A DNA stretch of 64,000 bases from an uncultured delta proteobacterium (GTDB lineage: Bacteria; Desulfobacterota; Syntrophia; Syntrophales; CAMTWB01): the NCBI GenBank assembly GCA_947085375.1, contig CAMTWB010000008.1:3507-67506 (forward strand), in the 5' to 3' direction. Below the pieces are notes generated by a model. It searched no databases. It had not been told where the DNA came from and saw nothing but the letters and a program-made list of their open reading frames with translations. Positions within the stretch are counted from its first letter, which is position 1. Every line of letters begins with the position of its first letter. Made by a program: the position numbers and the translations under genes. Of this stretch, positions 18,264-31,693 are shown one piece after another.

Positions 18264-21200
18264 TTATTCTGCAACTCCTCCTACCTCCACATAGGGCAGG
18301 ATTGTCTCCCAGGAGCTGTTGCCGCCGTGGCTATAGCGCCCCTTGAGCCTTCCCGTATCGATAAATCCGTGGTCGGAGATGATACTGAAGCTGGGCAGGC
18401 TTTTTAATATCGGCAGGATGCCGTGAATGAATTCGCTTTTGATATTGAGATAAAGGGGATAGCTGTCGAGCGTGCTGTTATGCATCTTGCTGTCGATAAA
18501 ATTAAAATGAAGCACCTTTGTTTTCGCCTCTCCCTTCAGAAAACGCTTAAGATCCCGTATTGGGAAGCCCCGTTCCGACCACTTTAAGAGCGAAATCTCA
18601 GCATCTGCTGTTTCGGCCTCCTCTCCGATACCCAGGAGCCTCCGGAAGTGTGACGTAAGCGTCGGTCCCGGAATCACAAAGGGATGCTCCTTGAGCGTCA
18701 TCCCTTCTTTTTCCATAACTTCCCGCAGGATCAGCCAGAGGTCATAGCGCAGTCCATCCATAACGGTAACGATTCCCTTCATCTTTTGACTGATAGCCGC
18801 AATGTCCAGCGCCCCGGCATGCCGGTCCTGGCGCTTTTCGTAGGCGGCCAGGATTTCATGCTGATTTCTTTCGAGCGCCTCGATGATGGAACCGGCAACC
18901 AGCTCCTGGCCCATGTTTTCGTGAGCGAAGGCCGCGATGCGGTAGGCCAGAGGGGCAATGACCCTGGTGAAGACCTCGACGCCCGCGTATCTTTCCCTTT
19001 CGGCCAATAGCCTGGCAATCTGGAGCAACTCCGTAAGCGGCCGGTCTTCGATCGTCCCGAGAGAGGCCGCGGAAATGGTTCGCCCGCTCAGCCTGCGAAA
19101 TATCTCTCCCCGGATATGTTTTCTCAAGCGGCCGATCCGTTCCGTTTTGAGGAAGGCCAGGAGTTCCTGGTCCGCATAGGAGGTCCAGCGGATATCATCA
19201 ATGGCCTGAAACCTTCCATCTCGCTTAAGGGCCTCGTCGAGGTCGTCAAAGGATCGCAGTTGGGGATCATTTTCCATCAGGGCGCGAAAAACAGTCTCTC
19301 CCTGCGGCCCATAGCGGCAAAGTCCTTCCTTCAGGGCCTGGGTTGCCGCATCGCCTTCCCCGCGCAGGTGGATGATGCAGTCCTCATCGTCTCCGATCCA
19401 CTTAAGAAAGAGCCCCTTGAGTTCCTCCTGGCGAAACCGCCGCCCCTGGACCCGGCCGATAAAATCGCTCAGATCCAGTTCTTTGACCTTCCAGCGGCCC
19501 CCCAACGCCTTCTCGATTGCGATCAGTACCTCGTCTGTTAATTGAGGCAAGAGGAGGGAGGTGTTTACCCGCTGGGCGTCGAGATTCAGTAGCGACGAGA
19601 AACGTGCTGCCAGGTCCTGCTGGCCTGCATCATGGAGGCTTAAACGATATGAATCGAGCCTTTCCCTGTTTCCGGCCCCATTGAGCGCCTCCAGGAATTT
19701 TTGCAATCCCGCCCGGCAGGAGGCGGCAAAATCCGTTTCCAGCTCCGGCGGCTTGCTGTCGATGGACAAACCGCAACTGCAGGCCGGGCTGAGAAAGAGG
19801 TCTCTGTTTAAGTCGTAACGGCAGGCCGCAGGCAGGCGATCAAGCTCTCTCTTCAATTCCCACCACTCGCCGAGAAAGGTCAAGGAACCGACCTGGGCGG
19901 CAATTCTTCTTAAGGCCTTGGCCTCGGGCAGCTCCTCGACAACCTTCCTTGCTGAGAAGACGGAAGCGCGGTAGTAGAGCTCGTGCTTTTCCTTATAGGC
20001 CTGGGTATATTCATCAAAGAAGGCCTCCCATTGGTCTTTGATGTCAGGAAAGTCGCTCTTTTTGCCTTGAAGAAAATCGTCAATCAAGAGGAGCAGGACG
20101 TCCCGCTTTTCCCTGAGGTCGGCAGGCAGCTTCAGTGCGGGGTGCTCCAGGTAAAGCCAGTATTTGTTGATAGGTTGAAACTGCTCGGATAAAAAGAGCA
20201 ATAGCCTTTTGAGATAAGCCAGCTCTGCTTCCATGGCGGGGTTTGACTTCAGGTAGGAGAGGAACCTTTCCAGGCCTTCCGCCGGCGGCAAAGACAGGGT
20301 CAGGGAATGGAAAAACATGCCCAGACGGCCCAGGAGGGAGCCGTCTATAGCCGCCTTTTTGAGCAGAGAGTAGTCTTTGTATTTGTTAATGAGACCGTTT
20401 ATGTCGTCCAAGAGACGCCTGCCCTGCCGCACCAGTTCCACCGCCTGCTTCCACATCAGTTTCTGGGTGATGGGCGTCGGGATGTCTTCCACCTCGCCCC
20501 AGATAAACCTGCCCGCCCCGATATAGGCGAGGAGTTCCGCGCAGAGGGTTTTACCAGGTCGCAACGTTGAGATTTCACCGCTTGAGAGCTGAGGCAGATC
20601 CTTGAGTTCAACCATCTCCTGTCGGCTGTAAGGGATGAGGTGCCCGGAGGAGATGAAAGCAGCCAGGACTATGTTGATCTGGTCGTCCGTCATTCCCCAC
20701 TTTCCCTTTTTTAGGGCCATCCGGATATCAGCTATTCCCTCTCCCTGGGAGGAAATGGTTAGGATATGGGAAACAAGATCATTGGCGGGATCGAGCGAGA
20801 TGAGGAAGGTGCTCCCCCTTTTGACAACGATTCCCAGGGGCTCCGGCAGGGCGTTGATATAGGGGACCAGGCCCTTGGTTTCTGCTTCCTCAATCGTAAT
20901 CCTCCCCTGCCGGATAAAATCCCGGTAAAGGGACTGTAAATGCTGGGAAGAGATATAATCGCCGCGCGGCATGATCCGGGCATGGTTGGGGTACAACTCA
21001 GCTAGACTGTAGTCAAAAAGGTGAGTGAGCAGTCTTTCTATGGGCAGATAGCCCAGATCCTTGATGTTGCCCAGGCGTTTTCCCGATCCATAGACGATTT
21101 CGCCCTCGAAATACAAACGGGTGATGATCTCCCGGCATTGTGCCTCGTCCCGGCGCAGGTCATTGCCAAACACGGGAAATTCTTCCACGAGTATTTTTTT

Positions 21201-22892
21201 GGCAATAAATTCTTCGAGGAAGGTCGTCTCCTCGTTCATGGGCAATCGGGGAGTCCAGAAAACAAGAGCGCAGAGGAAGGGCGAGGCGTTGGCATCCTTC
21301 CAGGCGTAGATTCCGGCATTATCAGCCCAAGGTGACAATATAACCAGAAAACCATCCAGGCGCTTCTCAATCCCCTCGAGCATCCTTTCCATTTCCTCCC
21401 GCTGGAGCGCAAAGGGCGATGCCGCCAGGACTACACAGTCCCGGGGGCTGTTTTGCCAGGTAAAACGGTACTTCTTGCCCTCCTTGATCTCCCGCAAGGG
21501 GAGGTAGGGCAGGGCGGTCAGGCGGCATACTTCGGAAAACAGGACATTTCGGTCGGCAAATCGTTCGCGGACCGCTTTGATCCTGCCCCGCGCCCTGATC
21601 CCTTCATCTACGGTCGTATCGAGGAAATAATTTTCTCCCTCCCGATTGACATACATCTGGTGGGCCACCAGCGGATTCAAGATCGCGTTTTTGATATAGT
21701 CGTAGTTGATCTCCTTTGTGATGGTGCTGATCTTCTTCAAGAGGAGTTCGGCAATCTCCCGGGCGTTTTTTCTTTTCTCGAAGGGAGATATCTCCGTCAG
21801 CGCCATAATTTTGATTGCCGCCAGGGCGATCCGCTCTTGCCCTGGCTGGGCCAGGATCTGACCGATCTGCCTCCGGTAGTAGTCGTAAATAACCCGGGCC
21901 AGGGGTGAATATTCGGGAATCTCGCGGATCCGTTCCTCAAAGTAGTCGAAGATAGCCTCGGGTGTAATCAGAGTCGCGGGTGATTCGTCAAAATTATTTT
22001 TCACCTCCGATAAAACGAACTGGATCACCCCCCGGTGCTGGGAAAAGACCGGCGTCAGCCCGGAGAGGTAGCGGGCGGTAAAGGGGTGCAGAGGATAGGT
22101 CTTGCGAAAATCCTCCAAGCGCAGATTAAGCGCCGGATAGTAGCGTTTCAAATCCTCAAAAATGCCCTGGATGACGGCCTGGGCCCCTTCCTTTTTGATC
22201 ACGATGCGCTGGTCGATAATATCTTCGATATGCGAAGATGAGAGATTTACCCTTACCGGGTAGCGATCCTTGATCCGGTTGAAGATGGAGGAGGAGATAT
22301 GACCGGTTTCCTCGATCCATTCCTGCAGGGAGGCAATTACCCACAGGGGGTGATGAAAGGAAAACTCGCCCAGAAACTGGAGAAACCGGATATCTTCGTA
22401 AAAGGCCGGCGTAGTGGGCTTGGCCCGCAGGAATTCCGACAGTTCGTCGATGAGGATCACAGTCGGCGCCGCGACGATCTCCTGAAACTGTTCCTGACGG
22501 TTCACGCCAGCGCCGGTATAGCCGCAGCTGTCCTGCAGGATCCGCTCCAGCGGCAGGGAGGCGGGGTATTTCACGAGGGATATCTTTACGAGGTTGATCT
22601 TTCCCGCCTGGATCTCGGGGTAATCTGCCAAAAGAGATTTTCCGCCCTGTCGGAGTAAAAGAAAAAGATAGGACAGGAAGTGGGACTTGCCGCTGCCGTA
22701 ATTGCCCTTGAGAAAGACGCCGCACCCCTTTCGGGCGTTGATATTGGCGAGGATGGTTCGCAGTCCTTCTTCCACCTCCCGGGTAAGCACAAAAGACGAG
22801 GCGATTTCACTGGGTATGTGGTCCGCGTCATCGAGCTCGATGACCGGCTTTATTTCGGGGATATCTATGATGTCGCTGAGCTTTTCTGCCAT
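18264..22892 (-). CDS. Fusion protein: BrxC/PglY-like P-loop ATPase (N-terminus) + ~900-aa unassigned middle + PglZ alkaline-phosphatase-fold domain (C-terminus)
   Basis: Walker A GNYGSGKSH (22683-22697), Walker B-like VILIDELSEF and a BrxC-like YPLHPFTARYL segment. The C-terminal 170 aa (18267-18776) carry the PglZ motif set VMDGLRYD / PGPTLTS / FIDSKMH / SDHGF / HGGNSSWE. Start set at ATG 22892 (MAEKLSDII). Confidence 0.75.
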   Translation of the reverse strand: MAEKLSDIIDIPEIKPVIELDDADHIPSEIASSFVLTREVEEGLRTILANINARKGCGVFLKGNYGSGKSHFLSYLFLLLRQGGKSLLADYPEIQAGKINLVKISLVKYPASLPLERILQDSCGYTGAGVNRQEQFQEIVAAPTVILIDELSEFLRAKPTTPAFYEDIRFLQFLGEFSFHHPLWVIASLQEWIEETGHISSSIFNRIKDRYPVRVNLSSSHIEDIIDQRIVIKKEGAQAVIQGIFEDLKRYYPALNLRLEDFRKTYPLHPFTARYLSGLTPVFSQHRGVIQFVLSEVKNNFDESPATLITPEAIFDYFEERIREIPEYSPLARVIYDYYRRQIGQILAQPGQERIALAAIKIMALTEISPFEKRKNAREIAELLLKKISTITKEINYDYIKNAILNPLVAHQMYVNREGENYFLDTTVDEGIRARGRIKAVRERFADRNVLFSEVCRLTALPYLPLREIKEGKKYRFTWQNSPRDCVVLAASPFALQREEMERMLEGIEKRLDGFLVILSPWADNAGIYAWKDANASPFLCALVFWTPRLPMNEETTFLEEFIAKKILVEEFPVFGNDLRRDEAQCREIITRLYFEGEIVYGSGKRLGNIKDLGYLPIERLLTHLFDYSLAELYPNHARIMPRGDYISSQHLQSLYRDFIRQGRITIEEAETKGLVPYINALPEPLGIVVKRGSTFLISLDPANDLVSHILTISSQGEGIADIRMALKKGKWGMTDDQINIVLAAFISSGHLIPYSRQEMVELKDLPQLSSGEISTLRPGKTLCAELLAYIGAGRFIWGEVEDIPTPITQKLMWKQAVELVRQGRRLLDDINGLINKYKDYSLLKKAAIDGSLLGRLGMFFHSLTLSLPPAEGLERFLSYLKSNPAMEAELAYLKRLLLFLSEQFQPINKYWLYLEHPALKLPADLREKRDVLLLLIDDFLQGKKSDFPDIKDQWEAFFDEYTQAYKEKHELYYRASVFSARKVVEELPEAKALRRIAAQVGSLTFLGEWWELKRELDRLPAACRYDLNRDLFLSPACSCGLSIDSKPPELETDFAASCRAGLQKFLEALNGAGNRERLDSYRLSLHDAGQQDLAARFSSLLNLDAQRVNTSLLLPQLTDEVLIAIEKALGGRWKVKELDLSDFIGRVQGRRFRQEELKGLFLKWIGDDEDCIIHLRGEGDAATQALKEGLCRYGPQGETVFRALMENDPQLRSFDDLDEALKRDGRFQAIDDIRWTSYADQELLAFLKTERIGRLRKHIRGEIFRRLSGRTISAASLGTIEDRPLTELLQIARLLAERERYAGVEVFTRVIAPLAYRIAAFAHENMGQELVAGSIIEALERNQHEILAAYEKRQDRHAGALDIAAISQKMKGIVTVMDGLRYDLWLILREVMEKEGMTLKEHPFVIPGPTLTSHFRRLLGIGEEAETADAEISLLKWSERGFPIRDLKRFLKGEAKTKVLHFNFIDSKMHNSTLDSYPLYLNIKSEFIHGILPILKSLPSFSIISDHGFIDTGRLKGRYSHGGNSSWETILPYVEVGGVAE

Positions 22893-23800
22893 TGTTTCGC
22901 CTTCTTCAGTAATCCCCAGAGGTGCTTGGCCTCCGGGCGGTGGGCGAGCGCCTCGCCAACCAGCCTTTCCCAACCCTCATAATCCGCCTTGTCCTCGTAT
23001 ATCTTGAAAATCGTCCGGGTGACAAAATGGTCTTCGGGATTCTGGACAAAAACGCCCTTCAGGTGGATGGCGGCCCGCTGTCTGTCGCCCATCTTATAAT
23101 AGGCATAGCCCAGCATCTTGCGGGTAAACGGATGATCCTTAATGGCAAGGAGCCTGGTATAAATCTCGACCGCCTGGTCGAATCTCTCCATTTTTTTATA
23201 GAGATCGGCCAGATAAAGATGAAGATCGTAATCCGCGGCATATTCGGGCAGGGCCATGATTGTCTCGATCTCGATTGCCGCCTGGGCTGGACTCTTGGCA
23301 GCGAATTTCTGCTGGTAATAGGTAAATCTGCTGGTGCCGCCAACCGTCTCTTCGCCGGCCAGGGCGATCTTCTTCAGAGGTTCGCTTTGGGGAAATCTCG
23401 CCAGCGCCTGCCTGAGGACATCCTTCCCCTTTTCTGCTCCCAGGGACCTTGCCGCTGCTTCCACCAGGAAGACAAAAAAAACCTCATTGCCCACCCCCCA
23501 AGAGAAGATGGCGTTGATTAACTTTTCCAGGTCATCCTTGGCCTTCTCCCGCTGAAGAATCAGGACGTAAGTGCGGAGGAAAAAGCTGTTGTTTTTAAGG
23601 AGTTCCACCCGGCCTTCCGCCTTAGTTCTCGCTTCCTTTATCTTCCCGAGCTGAAAAAGCAGATGGACCTCGTTGCCTAAAAGAAAGAGGTTGGTCGGAT
23701 AGATGGTCAGGGCCTCCTTCAGCGCCTCATAGGCCCCGCGGTAGTCCTTCTTTCTCTCCAGTGCGATGATTAGGTCAACGTATGCTCGGGCGTCGGTCAT
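22865..23800 (-). CDS. TPR-repeat protein
   Basis: 311 aa of repeated 34-aa-like A/Y/L helical hairpins (e.g. YRGAYEALKEALTIYP, DQAVEIYTRLLAIKD, GDRQRAAIHLKGVFVQNP). Its 3' end overlaps the ATPase-PglZ start by 28 nt. Confidence 0.75.
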   Translation of the reverse strand: MTDARAYVDLIIALERKKDYRGAYEALKEALTIYPTNLFLLGNEVHLLFQLGKIKEARTKAEGRVELLKNNSFFLRTYVLILQREKAKDDLEKLINAIFSWGVGNEVFFVFLVEAAARSLGAEKGKDVLRQALARFPQSEPLKKIALAGEETVGGTSRFTYYQQKFAAKSPAQAAIEIETIMALPEYAADYDLHLYLADLYKKMERFDQAVEIYTRLLAIKDHPFTRKMLGYAYYKMGDRQRAAIHLKGVFVQNPEDHFVTRTIFKIYEDKADYEGWERLVGEALAHRPEAKHLWGLLKKAKQWQKSSATS

Positions 23801-23836
23801 GGTTTTTTTGGTTTCAAGGTTATTGAAGAGGTTGCT

Positions 23837-23947
23837 TCACCTCTTCCGGTGCTGCTGCTTCAAAAAAAGTTCCAGCGCCGCCCGAAGATTGTCCCGCAGG
23901 GCGAGGTCGGAAATAAAGGGAATGTCGAATTTTTTTTCGATGGACAT
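23837..23947 (-). CDS. Possible 36-codon ORF (MSIEKKFDIPFISDLALRDNLRAALELFLKQQHRKR) upstream of the TPR gene
   Basis: An ATG with a weak AGGA upstream. It is below the ORF-track size cut-off and has no recognisable family. The stop lies inside an 8-bp stem (GAAGAGGT/ACCTCTTC, 23825-23846). Confidence 0.2.
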   Translation of the reverse strand: MSIEKKFDIPFISDLALRDNLRAALELFLKQQHRKR

Positions 23948-23994: not shown

Positions 23995-24190
23995 GTTAAG
24001 GGTCTGCGACAAATTTATGGGTAGAGCGGCTTTTTCTCCCCTCTTTCCCCAACTGAGCTTGGGACACAAATATTGCTGGACACGCGAGAAATGAGACCGA
24101 AGAAGGATATTTTTGTTTGATTCCCCCTTTGGGAAAGGGGGGGGCTAGGCCCTGCAAGATTGGACCGCTATAAATTTGTCTCACACCCCT
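23995..24190 (-). repeat. MITE-like repeat, copy A (terminal inverted repeats around AAATTTATGG; internal CCCCTTTCCCAAAGGGG hairpin)
   Basis: The reverse complement aligns with 31358-31580 over both ends. One end shares GTCCAATCTTGCAGGGCC and CCCTTTCCCAAAGGGGG. The other shares TTGGGGAAAGAGGGGAGAAAAA and CCGCTCTACCCATAAATTTG. The central ~70 nt differ. Confidence 0.7.
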
Positions 24191-24520
24191 CTATCCCAAT
24201 CCCCCACCGGCAATCCGGGCCAGGGACCTGGCCAGATTATCCAGCATTGCTTCATCGGGCAGGGTGATGGTCAACTTCATCTTGCCATCCCCTCCCTTTT
24301 CCAGACACTCGGCAAGCTGGCTGGTCTGCTCCGAATCGCCCGAACCGGGCAGAATCTCCCCCAGAAAGGCGAAGGCAGCCCCCAGCAGTTGCCCGCCGGC
24401 GCTGGCGATCCGCTCTTTCCGGGCCAACTCCCGGGCTTCCCTCTCCACCTGCGCCAGCAGGCTTTCATCCCGGTGCGCTTCCGGTTTCGACCCCAGGAGC
24501 ACCTCCAGGCGGCTTTTCAA
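24191..24520 (-). CDS. Hypothetical protein (109 aa, TTG start)
   Basis: ORF only, with no recognisable motif. It abuts repeat copy A. Confidence 0.3.
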   Translation of the reverse strand: MKSRLEVLLGSKPEAHRDESLLAQVEREARELARKERIASAGGQLLGAAFAFLGEILPGSGDSEQTSQLAECLEKGGDGKMKLTITLPDEAMLDNLARSLARIAGGGLG

Positions 24521-24568
24521 TTCCTCGATCGGACAGATCGTGTGCTTTTGACAAGATTAAAAATATCC

Positions 24569-24597
24569 CTTGACAGCTAAAATTAGTCCGAATATAT
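24569..24597 (+). promoter_or_regulatory. Candidate sigma70 promoter upstream of Rrf2-cydABDC
   Basis: TTGACA (24569-24574), a 17-nt spacer, then TATATC (24592-24597). A second TTGACA sits at 24547-24552. Confidence 0.35.
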
Positions 24598-24758: not shown

Positions 24759-25211
24759 ATGTTATTAACCAAGGCCGGTGAATACGCCGTTCGCTGCATG
24801 CTTTATCTTGCCGGCGAGGCTGATTGCGAGGTTGTATCTCGCCGGCATGTTGCGGAAGCGATGAATATTCCTGCTCCCTTTTTAGCCAAAATTGCCCAGG
24901 AACTTGCCCGCTGTGGTCTAATCCAGATCGTGCAGGGTAGCAAAGGCGGGTATCGTTTGCGAAAAAATCCTGACGAGATTTCCCTGCTGGACGTAATCGA
25001 GGCGGTAGAAGGCGAAATTTTTTTGAACGAATGTCTCTTTCGTCCGGAGAGTTGTGGCCGCAGCAGCTACTGCAAGGTGCACGGTGTCTGGCAAGAGGCC
25101 CGGGATGGTCTGCGCAACACGTTTCGCCGTACTACTTTGGCGCAATTGTGCTTCTCGGATGATCCCGTCGCGCCGCGAGGCTTTCGGTATTTATTCAACA
25201 GGTGCGAATGA
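24759..25211 (+). CDS. Rrf2-family transcriptional regulator (Cys-containing, IscR/NsrR-like)
   Basis: MLLTKAGEYAVRCMLYLA, a wHTH, and three clustered Cys (C..ESCGRSSYC) typical of Fe-S-binding Rrf2 proteins. Confidence 0.85.
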   Translation: MLLTKAGEYAVRCMLYLAGEADCEVVSRRHVAEAMNIPAPFLAKIAQELARCGLIQIVQGSKGGYRLRKNPDEISLLDVIEAVEGEIFLNECLFRPESCGRSSYCKVHGVWQEARDGLRNTFRRTTLAQLCFSDDPVAPRGFRYLFNRCE

Positions 25212-25229
25212 TTTCTAACCAAAGGAGGT

Positions 25230-26603
25230 ATGATCATGGATGTTTTATTGTTGTCACGCCTGCAATTCGCCTTCACCACTTTTGTGCATTTCATTTTCGT
25301 TCCCTTGACCCTGGGGTTGTCACTTCTGGTGGCGTACATGGAAACGAAATACCTGCGCACTGGCGAAGAAGTGTACAAACGCATGGCCAAGTTTTGGGGC
25401 AAACTGTTTTTAATCAATTTTGCCTTGGGGGTGGTATCTGGTATTGCCCTAGAGTTTCAATTCGGCACTAACTGGTCCCGGTATTCTGCGTATGTGGGAG
25501 ATATTTTTGGGTCGCTGCTGGCTATTGAGGCAACGCTGGCCTTTTTTCTGGAATCTACATTTCTGGCGGTCTGGATTTTTGGTTGGAACAGAATATCCCC
25601 CAAACTGCACAACGCCAGCATCTGGTTGGTGGCCCTGGCTGCCAACATCTCGGCGTTCTGGATACTTATGGCCAACGGCTGGATGCAAAATCCCGTAGGT
25701 TATGTGCTGCGCGGAGATCGGGCAGAGCTGGAAAGCTTTACGGCCTTGATCACTAATCCTTTTGCCTGGCAACAGTTTTTGCATACCTTGAGTGCGGCCT
25801 ATGTGCTAAGTGGATTCTTTGTTCTTGGAATTTCCGCCTGGCATTTGGCTCGGGGCAATCAGGTGGACTTTTTCAAACGGTCTTTCCGGATCGCCGCCCC
25901 GTTTACCATTTTTTTTGCCCTTGCGATCGTTGTTCAGGGCCATCTGCACGGCAACGAAGTGGCTAAAACCCAGCCCGCTAAGGTGGCTGCCATGGAATCC
26001 CACTGGGAGACAATGACCCGTGCGCCCCTTTACCTATTTGTCATCCCTGATCCTGCCAAGGAGCGTAACCTGGTTGAATTGTTGCCCATCCCCGGCGGCC
26101 TTTCCCTGCTGGCCTTTAATTCCCTTGAATCTGAGGTCCGCGGCCTGAAAGATTTTCCGCCAGAGGATAGACCTCCGGTTTCCCTTACCTTTTTCTCATT
26201 CCGAGGTATGGTTGCCCTGGGCCTTCTTTTTCCACTGCTTGCCGCCTGGGTGTGGCTCAGGCGCAAGGATCCGCTGTCATCCCCCGCTATGCTGCGCCTG
26301 TTGCCGTGGGTTATTCCGCTGCCCTACATTGCGATTCAATTGGGTTGGATTGTGGCTGAGGTAGGCCGTCAGCCTTGGATTGTACATGGCATCATGCGTA
26401 CAGAGGATGCCTTTTCACCAGGGGTTTCCGTGGGGCAGGTGGGTTTCAGTCTATTTATGTTTGCTTTGATTTATACTCTATTGGTGGCGGTGGATATCTA
26501 TCTTTTGGCTTCTCACGCCAAGAAGGGGCCAGGGTCAACTGACAACAAGGGCATCTCCCATAAGGATTCTGTCGCTGTAGAGTCGAAGCCTTCCTTGGCC
26601 TGA
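25230..26603 (+). CDS. cydA: Cytochrome bd ubiquinol/menaquinol oxidase subunit I
   Basis: LSRLQFAFTTFVHFIFVPLTLG, GWIVAEVGRQPWIV, 457 aa. Confidence 0.95.
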   Translation: MIMDVLLLSRLQFAFTTFVHFIFVPLTLGLSLLVAYMETKYLRTGEEVYKRMAKFWGKLFLINFALGVVSGIALEFQFGTNWSRYSAYVGDIFGSLLAIEATLAFFLESTFLAVWIFGWNRISPKLHNASIWLVALAANISAFWILMANGWMQNPVGYVLRGDRAELESFTALITNPFAWQQFLHTLSAAYVLSGFFVLGISAWHLARGNQVDFFKRSFRIAAPFTIFFALAIVVQGHLHGNEVAKTQPAKVAAMESHWETMTRAPLYLFVIPDPAKERNLVELLPIPGGLSLLAFNSLESEVRGLKDFPPEDRPPVSLTFFSFRGMVALGLLFPLLAAWVWLRRKDPLSSPAMLRLLPWVIPLPYIAIQLGWIVAEVGRQPWIVHGIMRTEDAFSPGVSVGQVGFSLFMFALIYTLLVAVDIYLLASHAKKGPGSTDNKGISHKDSVAVESKPSLA

Positions 26604-26673
26604 TTGTGTTTGTGGATATCGGCATATCCGTGGCTTACATGTAATCTGAGGTGAATAGACAAAGGAGAAGACC

Positions 26674-27699
26674 ATGTTAGAAATTATCTGGTTTGTACTG
26701 TGGGGTGTGCTTTGGGCGGTGTATTTTGCCCTAGACGGCTACGATCTGGGACTGGGTACCCTGATGCCCGCTCTGGCCAAGGACGAGCGAGATCGGCGGA
26801 TCATATACAATGCCGCCGGGCCCTTCTGGGACGGCAATCAAGTCTGGCTGCTCACGGCCGGTGGCGTAACCTTTGCCGCGTTTCCCGGGGCCTATGCCGC
26901 GCTCTTCAGCGGGCTGTATACGGCGCTAATGCTGTTACTCTTCGCTTTGATCCTGCGCGGGGTTTCCTTTGAATTCCGCCGCAAGGTGGACAGTGTTTCC
27001 TGGCGTAAGGTCTGGGATGTGTGCCACGTGCTCGGTAGTTTTCTCCCTGCCTTACTATTGGGAGTGGCCTTTGCCAATATCTTCAAAGGCATCCCTTTCA
27101 ATGCCCAGGGCATCAACGAAGGAGGTTTGCTGGATCTGCTCAATCCCTACGGCTTGGCTGGCGGCGTTCTCTTTGTGCTGATGTTCTCCCTCCATGGGGC
27201 ATTGTGGCTGGGTGTCAAGGCCGAAGGACCGATTGCCCAGCGCGCTGAGGCGATGGCTGAGAAACTGTGGATGGCGGTGGTGGTCATGCTGGTGCTTTTT
27301 CTGCTGATGACCATCTTTTTCACCAAGCTTTTTGCCAACTATCTCGCCAATCCGTTACTTTTCGTGATTCTGCTTTTACCCGTAATCGGGTTGATCCAGG
27401 TACGCATGGCCTTAGGCAAAAGGGCAATGCTCAAGGCCTGGGCCAATTCCGCGGCGGCCATTGTCGGTGTGACGCTCTTTGGTGTAATTGGCCTGTTCCC
27501 GGCGCTTTTACCATCCAGCCTGGATGTGGCCTACAGCCTGACCATTGCCAACTCAGCCTCTAGCCCCTTGACATTGAAGATTATGCTTGGCGTGGCCTTG
27601 GTGTTTGTCCCCCTGGTGATCGCCTACCAGGCTTGGGTGCATGTGCGGTTTGGACATAAGATTACTGATGCGGACTTGGATTATGAAGAGGCATACTAG
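26674..27699 (+). CDS. cydB: Cytochrome bd oxidase subunit II
   Basis: A 341-aa polytopic membrane protein with LDGYDLGLG and FWDGNQVWLL, immediately after cydA. Confidence 0.9.
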   Translation: MLEIIWFVLWGVLWAVYFALDGYDLGLGTLMPALAKDERDRRIIYNAAGPFWDGNQVWLLTAGGVTFAAFPGAYAALFSGLYTALMLLLFALILRGVSFEFRRKVDSVSWRKVWDVCHVLGSFLPALLLGVAFANIFKGIPFNAQGINEGGLLDLLNPYGLAGGVLFVLMFSLHGALWLGVKAEGPIAQRAEAMAEKLWMAVVVMLVLFLLMTIFFTKLFANYLANPLLFVILLLPVIGLIQVRMALGKRAMLKAWANSAAAIVGVTLFGVIGLFPALLPSSLDVAYSLTIANSASSPLTLKIMLGVALVFVPLVIAYQAWVHVRFGHKITDADLDYEEAY

Positions 27700-27740
27700 G
27701 GTGGCGGCAACCTGCTTTCGCAAACAATGTTGATACGAGA

Positions 27741-29456
27741 TTGCTCATGAGAGGCAAACTCGTATTGGGGGGCGGCTCCAGGTGGCTGCCCCTTTCCTCA
27801 GCGGAAGCGTGGCTATGCACCAAGGCCTTCCCAGACCGGAATTTTCTCATTCTAGCCGTTTCTCTGGGATTACTAGCCGGGCTTTTGCTGATCATTCAGG
27901 CCGGGGTATTGGCAGGAATTGTTCACCAAGTAATCTTTGATGGCAAAGGCTTGCGCGATGTTATTTTGCCTCTTGGGCTGTTGCCGATGACCATTATCCT
28001 GCGTGCGCTTCTGGTCTGGAGTGCTGAGCACTTCGGGTTCAAGGCGGCGGCAGCGGTTAAGACCGCTTTACGAATACAACTTTTCGATCACTTTTTTGCC
28101 CTGGGTCCACAGCGGCTGCGCAGTCGCGCCACGGGCGATCTGGCGCATCAGGTCGTTGATGCCGTGGAGGGTCTGGAAGCTTACTACGCAAGATTCTTGC
28201 CCCAGGCGGCTCAAGCGGCCCTGCTGCCCCTTGCGATGCTGGCCTTTATCCTACCCTTGGACCTGGTTAGCGGTTTGGTTCTGTTGTTTACCGCTCCATT
28301 CATCCCTTTGTTTATGGTGCTAATTGGCAACCGAGCCGAAAAGATGAACCGGCGTCAATGGCGCAAACTGGCCGCTTTGAGTGCCCGGTTCCTGGACAGC
28401 TTGCAAGGCTTAACCACCCTGAAAATGTTCAACGCCAGCCGACGCGAAACAGAGGTGATCGCGAGGATTACGGAAGATTACCGAAAAACCACGGTCTCTG
28501 TTATGCGGGTCGCGTTTCTTTCCGCCTTGATGCTGGAATTTTTAGCTACCGTCAGCGTGGCGGTGGTGGCGGTCTTCATTGGATTTAAGCTGCTGTCCGG
28601 ATCAATCACCTTTCAGGCGGGTTTTTTCATCCTGCTTTTAGCGCCGGAATTCTATCTGCCCCTGCGCACCTTGGGCGCCCACTACCATTCCAGGCTGGCC
28701 GCCCTGGCCGCGGCAGAGGGGATTATCGCCATTATGTCTGAGCCGCCACAACGCCAAACACCGGGAAATAACCGTTTTTCCTGGCCCTTAGTGAACCTTG
28801 ATTTGGAGAATATCAGTTTTAGCCACATCCATGGCCAGGCTTTGCTGCAATACCTCAATGTGCGCATTCCCGCCGGCTCTATCACTGTCCTGGCCGGTCC
28901 CAGTGGAGCGGGTAAGACGACGCTCTTGCGCATCCTGTTGCGCAGCATTACGCCGGATACCGGGAGGCTGTTGGTTAATGGAACGGATTTAAGAGAAGTG
29001 TCCTTTCAAGATTGGCTAACTCATGTCGTCTGGATGCCTCAGGAGCCCTATTTTTTTCAAGGGACGATGCAGGATAACATGCTGATGGGAGCGGCGATTG
29101 ACGTTTCACAAGACCAGTGGTCTGGCCTAAAGCGGGCTGCGGCCATGACCGGGCTCGACCAAGACCTCGCAAACCTCCCAGCGGGCTTGCAAACTACGCT
29201 GGGTGAGGGCGGCTTTGGGCTCTCGGGGGGACAGCGGCAACGACTGGCACTGACTAGGGCGTTTTTTAAGGATGCGCCCCTATTTCTACTGGACGAACCC
29301 ACTGCCCACCTGGATGAGCAGAGCTGCCAAACGGTGCTGGCCGCCCTGCGTAGCTTGGGCGGAAGGCGCACCCTGGTGGTGGCTTCCCACGACCCGCGGG
29401 TTCGGGAGATTGCGGACATCGTCGTGGAGCTGCGCACAGATAAGGACTACCCATGA
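27741..29456 (+). CDS. cydD: Thiol reductant ABC exporter CydD
   Basis: A TMD plus an ABC ATPase (GPSGAGKTTLL, LSGGQRQRLAL, LLDEPTAHLD), following cydAB. Start uncertain (TTG 27741 or ATG 27747). Confidence 0.85.
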   Translation: MLMRGKLVLGGGSRWLPLSSAEAWLCTKAFPDRNFLILAVSLGLLAGLLLIIQAGVLAGIVHQVIFDGKGLRDVILPLGLLPMTIILRALLVWSAEHFGFKAAAAVKTALRIQLFDHFFALGPQRLRSRATGDLAHQVVDAVEGLEAYYARFLPQAAQAALLPLAMLAFILPLDLVSGLVLLFTAPFIPLFMVLIGNRAEKMNRRQWRKLAALSARFLDSLQGLTTLKMFNASRRETEVIARITEDYRKTTVSVMRVAFLSALMLEFLATVSVAVVAVFIGFKLLSGSITFQAGFFILLLAPEFYLPLRTLGAHYHSRLAALAAAEGIIAIMSEPPQRQTPGNNRFSWPLVNLDLENISFSHIHGQALLQYLNVRIPAGSITVLAGPSGAGKTTLLRILLRSITPDTGRLLVNGTDLREVSFQDWLTHVVWMPQEPYFFQGTMQDNMLMGAAIDVSQDQWSGLKRAAAMTGLDQDLANLPAGLQTTLGEGGFGLSGGQRQRLALTRAFFKDAPLFLLDEPTAHLDEQSCQTVLAALRSLGGRRTLVVASHDPRVREIADIVVELRTDKDYP

Positions 29457-31096
29457 GGGAGCTTCGTTTGCTATTATTTTTAGCCAGACACAAATGGCCC
29501 TGGCTGCTTTTGGGCCTTGGATGTTCTGTGATGACGTTGCTTTCCGGCGTGGCTCTGTTTACTCTGGCGGCCTGGTTTTTGGCTTCCATGGCCCTGGCCG
29601 GGGTAAGTGGTGCTTTCTTCAACTACTTCCTCCCCGCGGCAGGCATTCGGACTTTGGCCCTGGCCCGGGTCATTAGCCGCTACGCGGAACGGCTCTTAAG
29701 CCATGACGCTGCCTTGCGAATGCTGGCTCATGTGCGGATATGGTTTTTTGAGCGCCTCGAACCATTGCTTCCGTCTGGCCTGCAAAACGCGCACAGTGCG
29801 GATTTGCTCAGTCGGATGCGGGCGGATATTGACCTTTTGGATAATTTTTATTTGCGGTTGCTGCTGCCGACTCTAACGGCGCTGATCGTAGTTGGCTGCG
29901 GCGTGGTCTTCTTGGTCGGTTTTGACTATGGTCTTGCCCTGGGCGTTTTCGGACTCTGGCTAATGGCGGGTGGTATCGTACCCTTACTCGTCATGCGCCT
30001 AGGAAGGGCAGCGGGCAAGCGACAGGTGACGGGATTTTCTCGGTTGCGCTGCTTGGTGGTGGATGGCTTGAGGGGGATGGAGGAGCTTATCGCCTATGGT
30101 GCGGCGACCCGGCATCGCGATCTTGTGGATAAGGAAAGCCGTGCCTTGTTGAGGGATCAAGCCCGGTTGGCCAGGCTGGACGGTTTTTCCCAGGCTATGG
30201 TTGGATGGTCTTCGGGGATGGCCATGTGGTTGGTTTTGCTGCTAGGCATTCCTTTGGTTCATGACGGATCATGGTCACCGGCAACGTTGCCTATGCTGGC
30301 GGTTTTCACCTTGGTTAGCTTCGAGGCCCTGCAGGCTCTGCCTGCGGCATGGCGCATCTGGGGCCAGATCAGGGCGGCGACGGCCAGAATTATGGACGTA
30401 GCTTTTGCCCCCCTGCCCGTGCCGGAGCCCCGGCAGCCGCTGATGGTTCCGGAACGTTTTGATTTGGAGATTCAAGGGCTTTGCTTTACCTATCCTGGAA
30501 GTGAACGTCCGGTCCTGAACAACCTGACGTTGGTCTTAAATAGAGGCAGACGGGTCGCGATTCTGGGAGCAGTAGGATCAGGCAAGACGACCCTCTTGCA
30601 GTTGCTGTTGCGGTTTTGGGATTACGATCAGGGCCGAATTATTTTGAACGGGCGAGAGTTACGGGAGTATTCGGCCGAGAGTGTCCGCTCGCGCATAGCG
30701 GTGGTATCGCAACATGTTTATCTGTTCAATGCAAGCATCGCCGAAAATCTTCGCCTGGCAAACCCTCACGCAACCGACGGGCAGCTGCTAGCTGCAGCCA
30801 GAGCGGCTTGCATTGAGGATTTCATTCTCTCCTTGCCCAATGGCCTGCAAAGTGCTGTTGGGCAACATGGGACCAGAATTTCCGGAGGCCAAGCCAGGCG
30901 GCTAGCCGTCGCCCGGGCCCTGCTCAAGGATGCCCCGCTTCTGTTTTTGGACGAGCCTACCGAAGGATTGGATGGCCCCACCGAGGTCGCCTTTTGGGAA
31001 ACCCTTGAACCGCTTATGCATAATCATACCGTACTGCTGATTACCCACCGTCAAGCTGGGTTGGAGTACATGGACCAGGTCTTTGAATTGGACTAG
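29453..31096 (+). CDS. cydC: Thiol reductant ABC exporter CydC
   Basis: A TMD plus an ABC ATPase (GAVGSGKTTLL, ISGGQARRLAVA, FLDEPTEGLD). It overlaps cydD by 4 nt. Confidence 0.85.
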   Translation: MRELRLLLFLARHKWPWLLLGLGCSVMTLLSGVALFTLAAWFLASMALAGVSGAFFNYFLPAAGIRTLALARVISRYAERLLSHDAALRMLAHVRIWFFERLEPLLPSGLQNAHSADLLSRMRADIDLLDNFYLRLLLPTLTALIVVGCGVVFLVGFDYGLALGVFGLWLMAGGIVPLLVMRLGRAAGKRQVTGFSRLRCLVVDGLRGMEELIAYGAATRHRDLVDKESRALLRDQARLARLDGFSQAMVGWSSGMAMWLVLLLGIPLVHDGSWSPATLPMLAVFTLVSFEALQALPAAWRIWGQIRAATARIMDVAFAPLPVPEPRQPLMVPERFDLEIQGLCFTYPGSERPVLNNLTLVLNRGRRVAILGAVGSGKTTLLQLLLRFWDYDQGRIILNGRELREYSAESVRSRIAVVSQHVYLFNASIAENLRLANPHATDGQLLAAARAACIEDFILSLPNGLQSAVGQHGTRISGGQARRLAVARALLKDAPLLFLDEPTEGLDGPTEVAFWETLEPLMHNHTVLLITHRQAGLEYMDQVFELD

Positions 31097-31357: not shown

Positions 31358-31580
31358 GGTGGGTATGCGAGAAATTTATGGCTGTCCAATCTTGCAGGGC
31401 CCTGCCCCCCCCCCTTTCCCAAAGGGGGGCAGGGGGGATTTTCCCAAAGGGGGGCAGGGAGGATTTATAATAAAAGCCATAGGTTATTTATGGTTTGCCA
31501 AATCTCCCCCGACCCATCTTGGGGAAAGAGGGGAGAAAAAACCGCTCTACCCATAAATTTGCCGCACACCCTTGACCGGT
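31358..31580 (+). repeat. MITE-like repeat, copy B (inverted relative to copy A)
   Basis: TIRs: GGTGGGTATGCGAGAAATTTATGG at the left end versus the reverse complement of CCATAAATTTGCCGCACACCCTTGACC at the right end. The CCCAAAGGGGGGCAGGG module is duplicated internally. A 12-bp CCCTTGACCGGT occurs at 31349-31360 and 31569-31580. Confidence 0.7.
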
Positions 31581-31693
31581 TTTCAGCTTGACAGTCCCCT
31601 GCTAAATCCATATAGTCAACAAACTGCGAACCGTTTAATTCTATGAGATATTATTCGGATGAGCATGATTTTTACAATTTGAAAGGGGTTACT

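Follow-up and report, generated by a model that had tools for sequence, protein, structure and literature searches.

The 64,000-nucleotide (nt) stretch of contig CAMTWB010000008.1 analyzed here (assembly GCA_947085375.1, from an uncultured Syntrophales bacterium; its full length is called the window below) carries two overlapping genes on its minus strand, one encoding a tetratricopeptide repeat (TPR) protein and the other an ATPase of the BrxC/PglY type fused to a PglZ phosphoesterase domain. The question raised by this pair is whether it is a fragment of a known system, such as bacteriophage exclusion (BREX), in which BrxC and PglZ both take part, or a system in its own right. A first-pass annotation, made from the letters of the window, had suggested that the pair is not a described defence architecture, and indeed the BREX literature covered by our search contained no description of it; in the passages of a 2026 survey of BREX diversity that were covered, there is no mention of BrxC fused to PglZ, of a TPR partner or of RecQ. 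As set out below, the TPR gene and the fusion gene together look like an undescribed, self-contained, conserved but rare relative of BREX that has no modification enzyme.

We first considered the reading frame and the product of the larger gene. The ORF listing of the window (ORF, open reading frame) gives a frame of 4.7 kb, 18264-22973 on the minus strand. Because homologues start at the matching residue, the product was taken to begin at the ATG at 22892 (MAEKLSDII...) and to comprise 1542 amino acids (aa); the start proposed by the first-pass annotation was thus retained, and the TPR ORF that overlaps it by 28 nt was also found as proposed. A protein identical to the fusion is on record (P0001). 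Searching for homologues returned 763 matches, in which the full-length relatives are 38-82% identical to the window protein (38-84% with the scan of species genomes included); the homologues of a second clade are longer (1650-1800 aa) and about 29% identical. NCBI names the family members 'DUF6079 family protein' or 'hypothetical protein', and PADLOC 2.0 has no model dedicated to them. We built family alignments from the collected homologues and read residue conservation from an alignment of 101 sequences. Judged from these alignments and from predicted structures, the fusion is a complete BrxC followed by a helical linker of ~200 aa and a minimal but, by its residues, catalytically complete PglZ core (Table 1).

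The BrxC part was compared, profile against profile, with BREX-3 BrxC reference sequences taken from four plasmid BREX-3 operons. Using hhalign, aa 3-1168 of the fusion were found to be collinear with residues 1-1226 of the 1241 of BREX-3 BrxC (probability 100%, E 1.5e-40). The alignment runs from end to end and takes in the second winged-helix segment, a cysteine cluster and the extreme terminus of BrxC; therefore, the ~900 aa between the ATPase and PglZ, in which no motif could be named at first pass, correspond to the remainder of BrxC, namely its central and C-terminal parts. The layout consists of an ORC/Cdc6-type AAA+ domain, winged-helix domains, an alpha+beta domain, a helical region and a C-terminal domain. 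In scans with single models, the ATPase region alone was matched, by Pfam DUF6079 (E 8e-29, over its cut-off) and by the PADLOC BrxC model (E 2e-21), and the scores required by the curated NCBI BrxC/PglY models were missed (NF033441, 99 bits against a cut-off of 400; NF047891, 20 bits against 1700). On these scores, the window protein is a divergent BrxC/PglY subfamily. The middle 800 aa had no Pfam match in the single-sequence scan, and family profiles were required to assign them. AlphaFold models computed from the 101-sequence alignments had a mean predicted local distance difference test (pLDDT) score of 88 for aa 1-1000 and 89 for aa 344-1542. When the model of aa 1-1000 was compared with the PDB using Foldseek, BrxC (9zll/9zdx) ranked at the top (E 1.6e-10, template-modelling (TM) score 0.5, target-normalised), followed by ORC/Cdc6, and the family profile matched BrxC among the PDB sequences with an E-value of 5e-16.

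The residues expected of an active ATPase are conserved. The BrxC/PglY-like opening with Walker A, VILIDELSEF and YPLHPF that the first-pass annotation had described was recovered in full, the interval given there for Walker A (22683-22697) falling within the range in Table 1. In the 101 sequences, K69 and the G-x-GK-x-H core of Walker A are invariant, the serines beside them being conserved in at least 90%, and all of the Walker B residues D149, E150, L151, S152 and E153 are invariant. Further along the chain, a second winged-helix-like segment, LKKGKWGMTDDQINIVLAAFISSGHL, aligns with the matching segment of BREX-3 BrxC and weakly with residues 805-924 of Acinetobacter BrxC. The cysteine cluster aligns with C-x13-C-P-H-C of BREX-3 BrxC, which lies there at about aa 1085-1102; located near the C-terminal part of BrxC, it is possibly a small zinc site. 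The passages of the BrxC literature that were covered do not mention it.

Downstream of the BrxC part, a predicted linker of long helices leads into a fold of the alkaline-phosphatase type. With hhalign, aa 1371-1540 were aligned with residues 399-661 of the 667 of BREX-3 PglZ (probability 96%, E 9e-10, or 4e-9 with an alternative column setting). In this alignment, D1379, T1413, D1467, H1471, D1507, H1508 and H1522 fall on the catalytic positions of both BREX-3 PglZ and PorX, and the nucleophile motif PTLTS (T1413) is identical in the fusion and in BREX-3 PglZ. The catalytic residues are invariant in the 101 sequences, with D1379 conserved in at least 90%. All five motifs are also present, and the earlier proposal that BrxC is fused here to a PglZ domain whose site is apparently active is borne out. 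However, the domain is not the 'complete PglZ domain' that was described: only the catalytic core of ~170 aa is found, the N-terminal ~400 aa and an insert of ~50 aa are absent, and the score is below the Pfam threshold. Specifically, residues 1-398 of BREX-3 PglZ have no counterpart in the fusion, ~52 residues between its DHG and HGG motifs are missing (both by hhalign), and the cap-like beta insert and the N- and C-terminal accessory domains of BREX PglZ are absent. The sole Pfam match of the core was PglZ (PF08665), at 15.4 bits against a cut-off of 25 (E 0.019), and the PglZ matches in all single-model scans of the window protein (Pfam, NCBIfam and PADLOC) were sub-threshold, with E-values from 0.004 to 0.02; the homologue P0083 scores 25.6 bits against the same Pfam model, which is above the cut-off.

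The model of the C-terminal part (pLDDT 89) has a six-stranded central sheet within aa 1373-1538 and an alpha/beta/alpha fold. Its best matches in the PDB by Foldseek were PorX (E 6e-8) and then 9zn5_B (E 2.6e-5), which is the PglZ chain of the Acinetobacter BrxC-BrxB:PglZ complex; other enzymes of the alkaline-phosphatase fold, such as EptA, MCR-1 and NPP, came behind these (E > 6e-3). In agreement with the structural ranking, the family profile matched PorX among the PDB sequences (E 3e-5), pairing DGLRYDLW with DNLRYDQW, PttT with PTAT and YsHGG..E..PF with YQHGGISLEEMIIPF, and profile positions 1238-1437 aligned with PorX residues 71-283, which comprise the helical linker and the first catalytic motifs of PorX. 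No Response_reg match was found in the Pfam scans of the fusion protein, in which BrxC occupies the region upstream of the core.

We then surveyed the genomic neighbourhoods of 80 of the 243 relatives, with up to 10 kb of flanking sequence on each side, and clustered the neighbours over 82 loci. Of the 73 loci whose upstream DNA is long enough to be informative, ~65 have a homologue of the TPR gene directly upstream of the fusion gene, across many phyla. Several Pfam TPR models match the partner encoded in the window (E down to 2e-12), and the partners form a specific family of their own of ~310 aa, which is kept even in the distant clade (TPR identity 22-25%, the fusion clades being 25-30% identical). 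Among 44 directly adjacent pairs, the stop codon of the TPR gene overlaps the start of the fusion gene in 31, most often by 16 nt, and the gap is at most 11 nt in 39. Because the TPR gene lies just upstream of the fusion gene and overlaps it, the two products are almost certainly made together, and the translational coupling suggested at first pass accordingly concerns a real and probably co-translated partner. By substitution ratios, both genes are under purifying selection, the TPR gene evolving faster: the ratio of nonsynonymous to synonymous substitution rates (dN/dS) was 0.13 for the large gene between the window and the locus L016, with dS near saturation, and 0.25-0.36 for the TPR gene between the window and L016 and L006.

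Departures from this arrangement were also observed. In L022 (10380-11429), the fusion gene is instead followed immediately by the TPR gene, so that the order is permuted and the pair retained. In L002 (7359-8711) and L024 (3859-6404), both Nitrospirota, the TPR gene is missing, and one or two AAA_14/DUF4143 ATPase genes and an SNF2 gene are found upstream; a few loci that lack a TPR gene have such ATPases ahead of the fusion gene. At L002 and L024, where the ATPase genes match a PADLOC candidate system (PDC-S01), the arrangement may represent a swap of the partner.

No other BREX component was detected in the window, in which the remaining 49 ORFs matched only the generic mad3 and SspA models of PADLOC (E <= 1e-8). 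The 25 families with the most matches from the 150 nearest neighbours in the related loci included no methyltransferase, BrxA, BrxB, BrxF or BrxL, and the recurrent neighbour clusters, which comprise TPR, RecQ, SNF2 and a few generic families, did not include PglX/PglXI/BrxP, BrxB/BrxF, BrxA, BrxL, BrxD or PglW. The lack of pglX, brxA, brxB and brxL alongside the pair, pointed out at first pass for the window, is therefore seen again in that none of them recurs in 80+ related loci. A modification module and an inactive STAND protein of the BrxB/BrxF type are described, in the parts of the literature covered, as constant in all BREX and BREX-related types; the locus has BrxC and PglZ and is without these two defining features. 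The remaining nearest neighbours are heterogeneous and include PIN toxins, SEC-C proteins, radical SAM enzymes, response regulators and metabolic enzymes. At one locus of the family, the adjacent genes encode a DEAD helicase, an SMC-like ATPase and a dnd-associated protein; at another, they are VapBC, an SNF2 gene and the gene of a DUF4143 ATPase. The surroundings of the cassette change from one genome to the next, and in view of this heterogeneity we make no claim of enrichment in defence islands.

Besides the TPR gene, only helicase genes of two kinds recur as additional neighbours, RecQ (17 loci) and SNF2 (11 loci). In 17 Desulfobacterota loci (L035, L036, L037, L040, L042, L044, L045, L047, L048, L053, L057, L058, L060, L062, L066, L081 and the partial L033), a RecQ gene lies between the TPR and fusion genes, forming a three-gene TPR-RecQ-fusion operon. 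This RecQ is canonical, with DEAD, Helicase_C, RecQ zinc-binding, RQC and HRDC domains, and it gives very strong matches to the DpdF and PsyrT models of PADLOC, which probably reflects a RecQ-like nature of these models. Helicases of the SNF2 family, some of which have a SWIM finger, are encoded within 10 kb of the fusion gene in 11 loci and match the ZorD/DpdE models better than BrxHII. In L035 (2817-4829), L036 (4006-6087) and L040 (4170-6206), a protein of 670-690 aa with TPR repeats and a periplasmic-binding (LppC-like) domain is encoded directly upstream of the TPR-RecQ-fusion operon.

Neither RecQ nor two other SNF2 subfamilies were found in the window by tblastn. However, when the 109-codon ORF 24191-24520 was searched against the related loci, the tail of an SNF2 helicase gene surfaced. 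It is 87% identical (tblastn) to the SNF2 of L006, the Smithellaceae locus that carries the module of the closest relative and in which it is a 407-aa ORF, and 60-63% identical to residues 763-888 of the full-length SNF2 proteins (883-891 aa) in L081 and L060. The rest of the gene had no match further upstream in the window. An ORF on the plus strand (24176-24580) overlaps the remnant and is probably spurious. Synteny with the closest relatives (75-84% protein identity) is limited to the pair itself and the SNF2 tail; therefore, the ancestral order here was SNF2-TPR-fusion, and the helicase gene has been lost. The 'orphan two-gene module' proposed by the first-pass annotation is thus an incomplete description, given the RecQ and SNF2 genes linked in many relatives and the SNF2 tail in the window.

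The 243 relatives were found among 185,579 species genomes (one genome per species) and are spread over many phyla. An exhaustive search with HMMER, in which aa 344-1542 were compared with 1.84 billion representative proteins, gave 291 matches, 116 of them at E <= 1e-30 and most 1500-1850 aa long. The carriers include Nitrospirota, Thermodesulfovibrionia, Nitrospinota, several orders of Desulfobacterota, Elusimicrobiota, Margulisbacteria, Marinimicrobia, Halanaerobiales, Syntrophomonadaceae, Eremiobacterota, Vulcanimicrobiota, Stahlbacteria, a Marinifilum and a Burkholderiales metagenome-assembled genome (MAG). The window protein, which is Syntrophales-like, is 55% identical to a Nitrospinota protein and 39% identical to a Desulfobacterales one; this similarity does not follow taxonomy and therefore points to horizontal transfer. 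The family is rare and patchy, with an accessory, mobile-like behaviour.

Unfused relatives were also found. Among the 291 HMMER matches, ~11 clusters of 1320-1380 aa end exactly where BrxC ends. Solitary unfused BrxC-like genes of the same subfamily, encoding 1207-1265 aa, occur in L092 (9956-13579), L094 (5289-9077) and L095 (6299-10096), and no PglZ, TPR or methyltransferase gene was found among their neighbours; we thus rejected these loci as a split ancestor of the fusion. The neighbours in L094 are two genes for putative restriction endonucleases of the Uma2 type and a PIN gene. A metagenome scan with the unfused relative P0190 gave no match, and a second scan, based on an alignment, gave unfused BrxC-like genes.

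What the pair does can be approached through its characterised relatives. BrxC binds DNA, multimerises with ATP and dimerises via its C-terminal domain, and its AAA+ domain binds a stable BrxB:PglZ pair (PMC13326643); the PglZ of type 1 BREX is a metal-dependent nuclease that nicks DNA (PMC12205998). We consider it about an even call that the role of the pair is modification-independent defence against phages or other mobile DNA, exerted by an ATP-driven, DNA-directed nuclease complex. Such a role appears the most likely one because of the rarity of the family, its patchy distribution with turnover of context, and the defensive function of every BrxC relative characterised so far. In the mechanism that we propose, the fusion would hard-wire the contact between BrxC and PglZ, so that the BrxB bridge would be unnecessary and a BrxB/BrxF protein dispensable. 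With ATP, the BrxC part would be loaded onto DNA or would oligomerise there and thereby bring the tethered PglZ cores together, activating cleavage, and the cores would cut DNA, or possibly oligonucleotides. The TPR protein, whose gene takes the brxF/brxB position of BREX operons (as judged from the four BREX-3 operons compared), would likely be the sensor or regulator on which assembly depends, for instance through the binding of a foreign protein, in the manner of the repeat sensors of STAND NTPases. Since no modification enzyme is linked, the choice of target cannot rest on an epigenetic self-mark; self and foreign might instead be told apart by means of a foreign protein that the TPR partner recognises or by recognition of a DNA structure. 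In some lineages, RecQ or SNF2 would add unwinding or translocation, the helicase having been lost in this genome.

Several observations weigh against a defence role. All family members come from uncultured anaerobes, which is why the family has gone unnoticed so far, and no full-length member was found in the collections of sequenced plasmids and phages, the plasmid collection giving only N-terminal matches to BREX-3 BrxC and the phage collection no match at all. A clear defence-island signal was not seen among the 150 nearest neighbours, of which ~10% match defence models, and those are ambiguous helicases and ATPases. One member (L083) lies among flagellar and chemotaxis genes, and the pair in the window is flanked by housekeeping genes (acyl-CoA dehydrogenase, Rrf2 and cytochrome bd). 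The PglZ core is closest to PorX, a cleaver of oligonucleotides rather than of DNA, and DNA nuclease activity is an extrapolation because BREX PglZ has a cap-like insert and N-terminal domains that the core is without. The part assigned to the TPR protein is pure inference, and a nuclease without a self-mark requires another safeguard, for which the candidate mechanisms given above are hypothetical.

Part of this evidence fits a machine for DNA repair, replication restart or chromosome maintenance, in which the ATPase would recognise a DNA structure, PglZ would process an end or a phosphodiester adduct, and RecQ or SNF2 would unwind. A canonical RecQ inside the operon in 17 loci, the linkage of SNF2 in 11, the housekeeping contexts in the window and in L083, the absence of a modification gene and the fairly strong purifying selection (dN/dS 0.13) are all in line with such a function. 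However, an occurrence in 243 of 185,579 species and a phylogeny that does not track taxonomy are unusual for core DNA metabolism, and neither helicase is found in most loci. RecQ is moreover confined to a Desulfobacterota set whose main proteins are 26-30% identical to that of the window and may reflect few events; SNF2 has been lost here with the module still intact, and the characterised relatives of BrxC and PglZ, PorX excepted, all act in defence. We therefore regard a maintenance function as unlikely, though it deserves to be kept in mind.

The ranking of PorX above BREX PglZ in both structure and sequence suggests a different activity, that of a signalling phosphodiesterase whose core would hydrolyse cyclic or linear oligonucleotide messengers, with the AAA+ and TPR components as a switch and without cleavage of DNA. 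The PglZ domain of PorX cleaves cyclic and linear oligonucleotides, as cited in PMC12839542, and response regulators and chemotaxis genes lie near some members of the family. Nevertheless, the fusion has no receiver domain, three quarters of it is a DNA-binding BrxC with winged-helix domains, and the genes linked to it encode DNA helicases; response regulators, being common genes, do not lie next to it consistently; and the profile-profile match with BREX-3 PglZ is also significant, PTLTS being identical. A function purely in signalling thus seems rather improbable.

We also considered whether the pair is a piece of a canonical, type 3-like BREX system whose methyltransferase, BrxF/BrxA and helicase genes lie in another part of the genome. 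BREX-3 BrxC is the closest relative of the BrxC part, the core matches BREX-3 PglZ models, the SNF2 helicases recall BrxHII, and all carriers are fragmentary MAGs, so that distant genes are possible. On the other hand, canonical BREX genes normally form one operon, as in the four plasmid BREX-3 operons, whereas methyltransferase and BrxF/BrxA/BrxB/BrxL genes are not recurrent in 80+ loci (with at most 10 kb per side) and none is present in the 64-kb window; in addition, the TPR gene takes the brxF position, and the fusion family is a clade of its own with its own partner. A dispersed BREX system is accordingly a slim prospect. Finally, that the pair is a decaying, non-functional remnant left after deletion of the helicase partner is very improbable, since the reduction of the upstream SNF2 gene to its last ~115 codons, the MITE-like element (MITE, miniature inverted-repeat transposable element) beside that remnant and the failure of a scan to detect a promoter-like site upstream of the TPR gene are set against two ORFs intact over 5.5 kb, the retention of every catalytic residue, dN/dS well below 1 and the absence of an adjacent SNF2 gene from most family loci anyway.

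The coordinates of the features are collected in Table 1. Among the surroundings of the pair, the MITE-like repeat noticed at first pass is real; a second copy of this ~190-bp element lies near 31360-31572, just upstream of a 914-aa ORF at 31643, and the motif at its ends (GGGTCTGCGACAAATTTAT...) was seen 4 times against 0.02 expected. The element is no functional part of the module. Two further proposals for the upstream region did not hold: the 36-codon ORF (23837-23947) is conserved in none of the related loci and was rejected as a part of the unit, and the promoter scan turned up no sigma70-like site ahead of the TPR gene. The same scan gave no terminator after the main gene, and no tRNA or Rfam feature was found in the window. 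The flanking genes belong to ordinary metabolism, with acyl-CoA dehydrogenase and nitronate monooxygenase downstream and Rrf2 and cytochrome bd CydAB upstream. On the plus strand, 24759-31096 encodes an Rrf2-family regulator, cytochrome bd subunits I and II and two ORFs of ~550-570 aa that cluster with ABC-type proteins and are probably CydDC; this region is an oxygen-detoxifying operon in an apparently Syntrophales-like anaerobe.

Table 1. Features of the TPR and BrxC-PglZ pair and of the DNA next to it, in coordinates of the window
Feature	Coordinates	Strand	Basis or remark
Main gene, BrxC-PglZ fusion, 1542 aa	18264..22892	-	ORF and translation; stop codon 18264-18266
BrxC-homologous part, aa 3-1168	19389..22886	-	hhalign against BREX-3 BrxC, DUF6079, PADLOC BrxC, Foldseek
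Walker A GNYGSGKSH, aa 63-71	22680-22706	-	aligned with BrxC Walker A
Walker B region VILIDELSEF, aa 145-154	22431-22460	-	aligned with BrxC Walker B
YPLHPF motif	22080-22097	-	motif position in the translation
Second winged-helix-like segment, aa 727-752	20637-20714	-	hhalign with the matching BrxC segment
Cysteine cluster C1024-x13-C1038-x-C1040	19773-19823	-	cysteines invariant in the family
Helical linker, aa 1169-1368	18789..19388	-	AlphaFold: long helices, pLDDT mostly >85
Minimal PglZ-type alkaline-phosphatase-fold core, aa 1369-1542	18267..18788	-	hhalign, Foldseek, sub-cut-off Pfam PglZ
VMDGLRYD motif	18741-18764	-	PglZ core
PGPTLTS motif	18651-18671	-	PglZ core
FIDSKMH motif	18480-18500	-	PglZ core
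SDHGF motif	18363-18377	-	PglZ core
HGGNSSWE motif	18306-18329	-	PglZ core
All-TPR partner gene, 311 aa	22865..23800	-	Pfam TPR models; 936 nt; 28-nt overlap with the main gene
SNF2 helicase remnant, last ~115 codons	24209..24529	-	tblastn; within/around 109-codon ORF 24191-24520 (-)
MITE-like element, 189 bp	24000..24188	.	19-nt inverted ends, 89% complementary; between the SNF2 remnant and the TPR gene

Returning to the reading of the pair as a defence system, we tentatively propose, with somewhat less than even confidence, that TPR plus BrxC-PglZ constitutes an autonomous immune (or DNA-surveillance) system without DNA modification, in which the BrxC-PglZ core alone would be a complete sensor-effector licensed by the TPR protein. 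If so, it would be a new BREX-derived class with RecQ and SNF2 as optional add-ons, and a single-chain minimal model for the restriction step of BREX. How BREX stops phage is still debated, and recent work favours the BrxC:BrxB:PglZ core complex, with PglZ as the nuclease; a natural fusion of BrxC with a bare PglZ independently supports the idea that both activities work as one machine, and two genes with one enzyme chain are a much simpler object for biochemistry and structural work. Modification-free defence, if true, would redefine the minimal functional unit of BREX-like immunity, and genome maintenance with RecQ or SNF2, if that were true, would give an ATPase of the BrxC type its first role outside defence.

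Among known systems, BREX type 3, which consists of BrxF, BrxC/DUF6079, the PglXI methyltransferase, the BrxHII SNF2 helicase, PglZ and BrxA, resembles the locus in the first 1168 aa, which are collinear with BrxC (Walker motifs, second winged helix, cysteine cluster and C-terminal end), in the C-terminal core, which aligns with the PglZ catalytic domain and has identical catalytic residues, in the small gene immediately upstream of the ATPase gene and in the occasional linkage of SNF2-family helicases. Unlike BREX-3, the locus has BrxC and PglZ in one polypeptide, with PglZ cut to a core of ~170 aa, and the unit has no methyltransferase, no inactive STAND protein of the BrxF/BrxB type and no BrxA. 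The upstream gene encodes a TPR protein here and a P-loop protein in BREX-3, and the linked SNF2 has a SWIM finger and is nearer to ZorD/DpdE than to BrxHII, with RecQ in one Desulfobacterota set. STAND/Avs-type sensors with TPR arrays combine an AAA+/STAND-related NTPase, TPR repeats and a nuclease-type effector, as does the pair, a likeness that suggests ligand-triggered oligomerisation; in contrast to these sensors, the TPR is here a separate protein and the NTPase belongs to the BrxC (ORC/Cdc6) branch.

PorX (PDB 7pv7, 8ted, 8p6f), a response regulator of type IX secretion, comes nearest to the linker and core among solved structures, in sequence as well as in fold, with DxxRYD, PTxT and YxHGG being common to both; however, PorX has an N-terminal receiver domain and signals on oligonucleotides, whereas the fusion has 1168 aa of BrxC instead. 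The core complex of type 1 BREX (PDB 9zll, 9zn5, 9zdx; PMC13326643) likewise consists of an ORC/Cdc6-like ATPase and a PglZ phosphoesterase that are physically associated, although the association is there non-covalent and bridged by BrxB and is here covalent without BrxB; the identity is ~14%, and an insert of ~110 aa between Walker A and Walker B of Acinetobacter BrxC is absent from the window protein. The type 3 BREX-related systems with a stand-alone minimal PglZ (PMC12839542) differ in having a DUF499 ATPase, a methyltransferase, an inactive STAND protein and a separate PglZ gene with a cap-like insert, and yet they share with the present locus and its relatives a PglZ without extra BREX domains that is found together with a BrxC-like ATPase and an SNF2 helicase.

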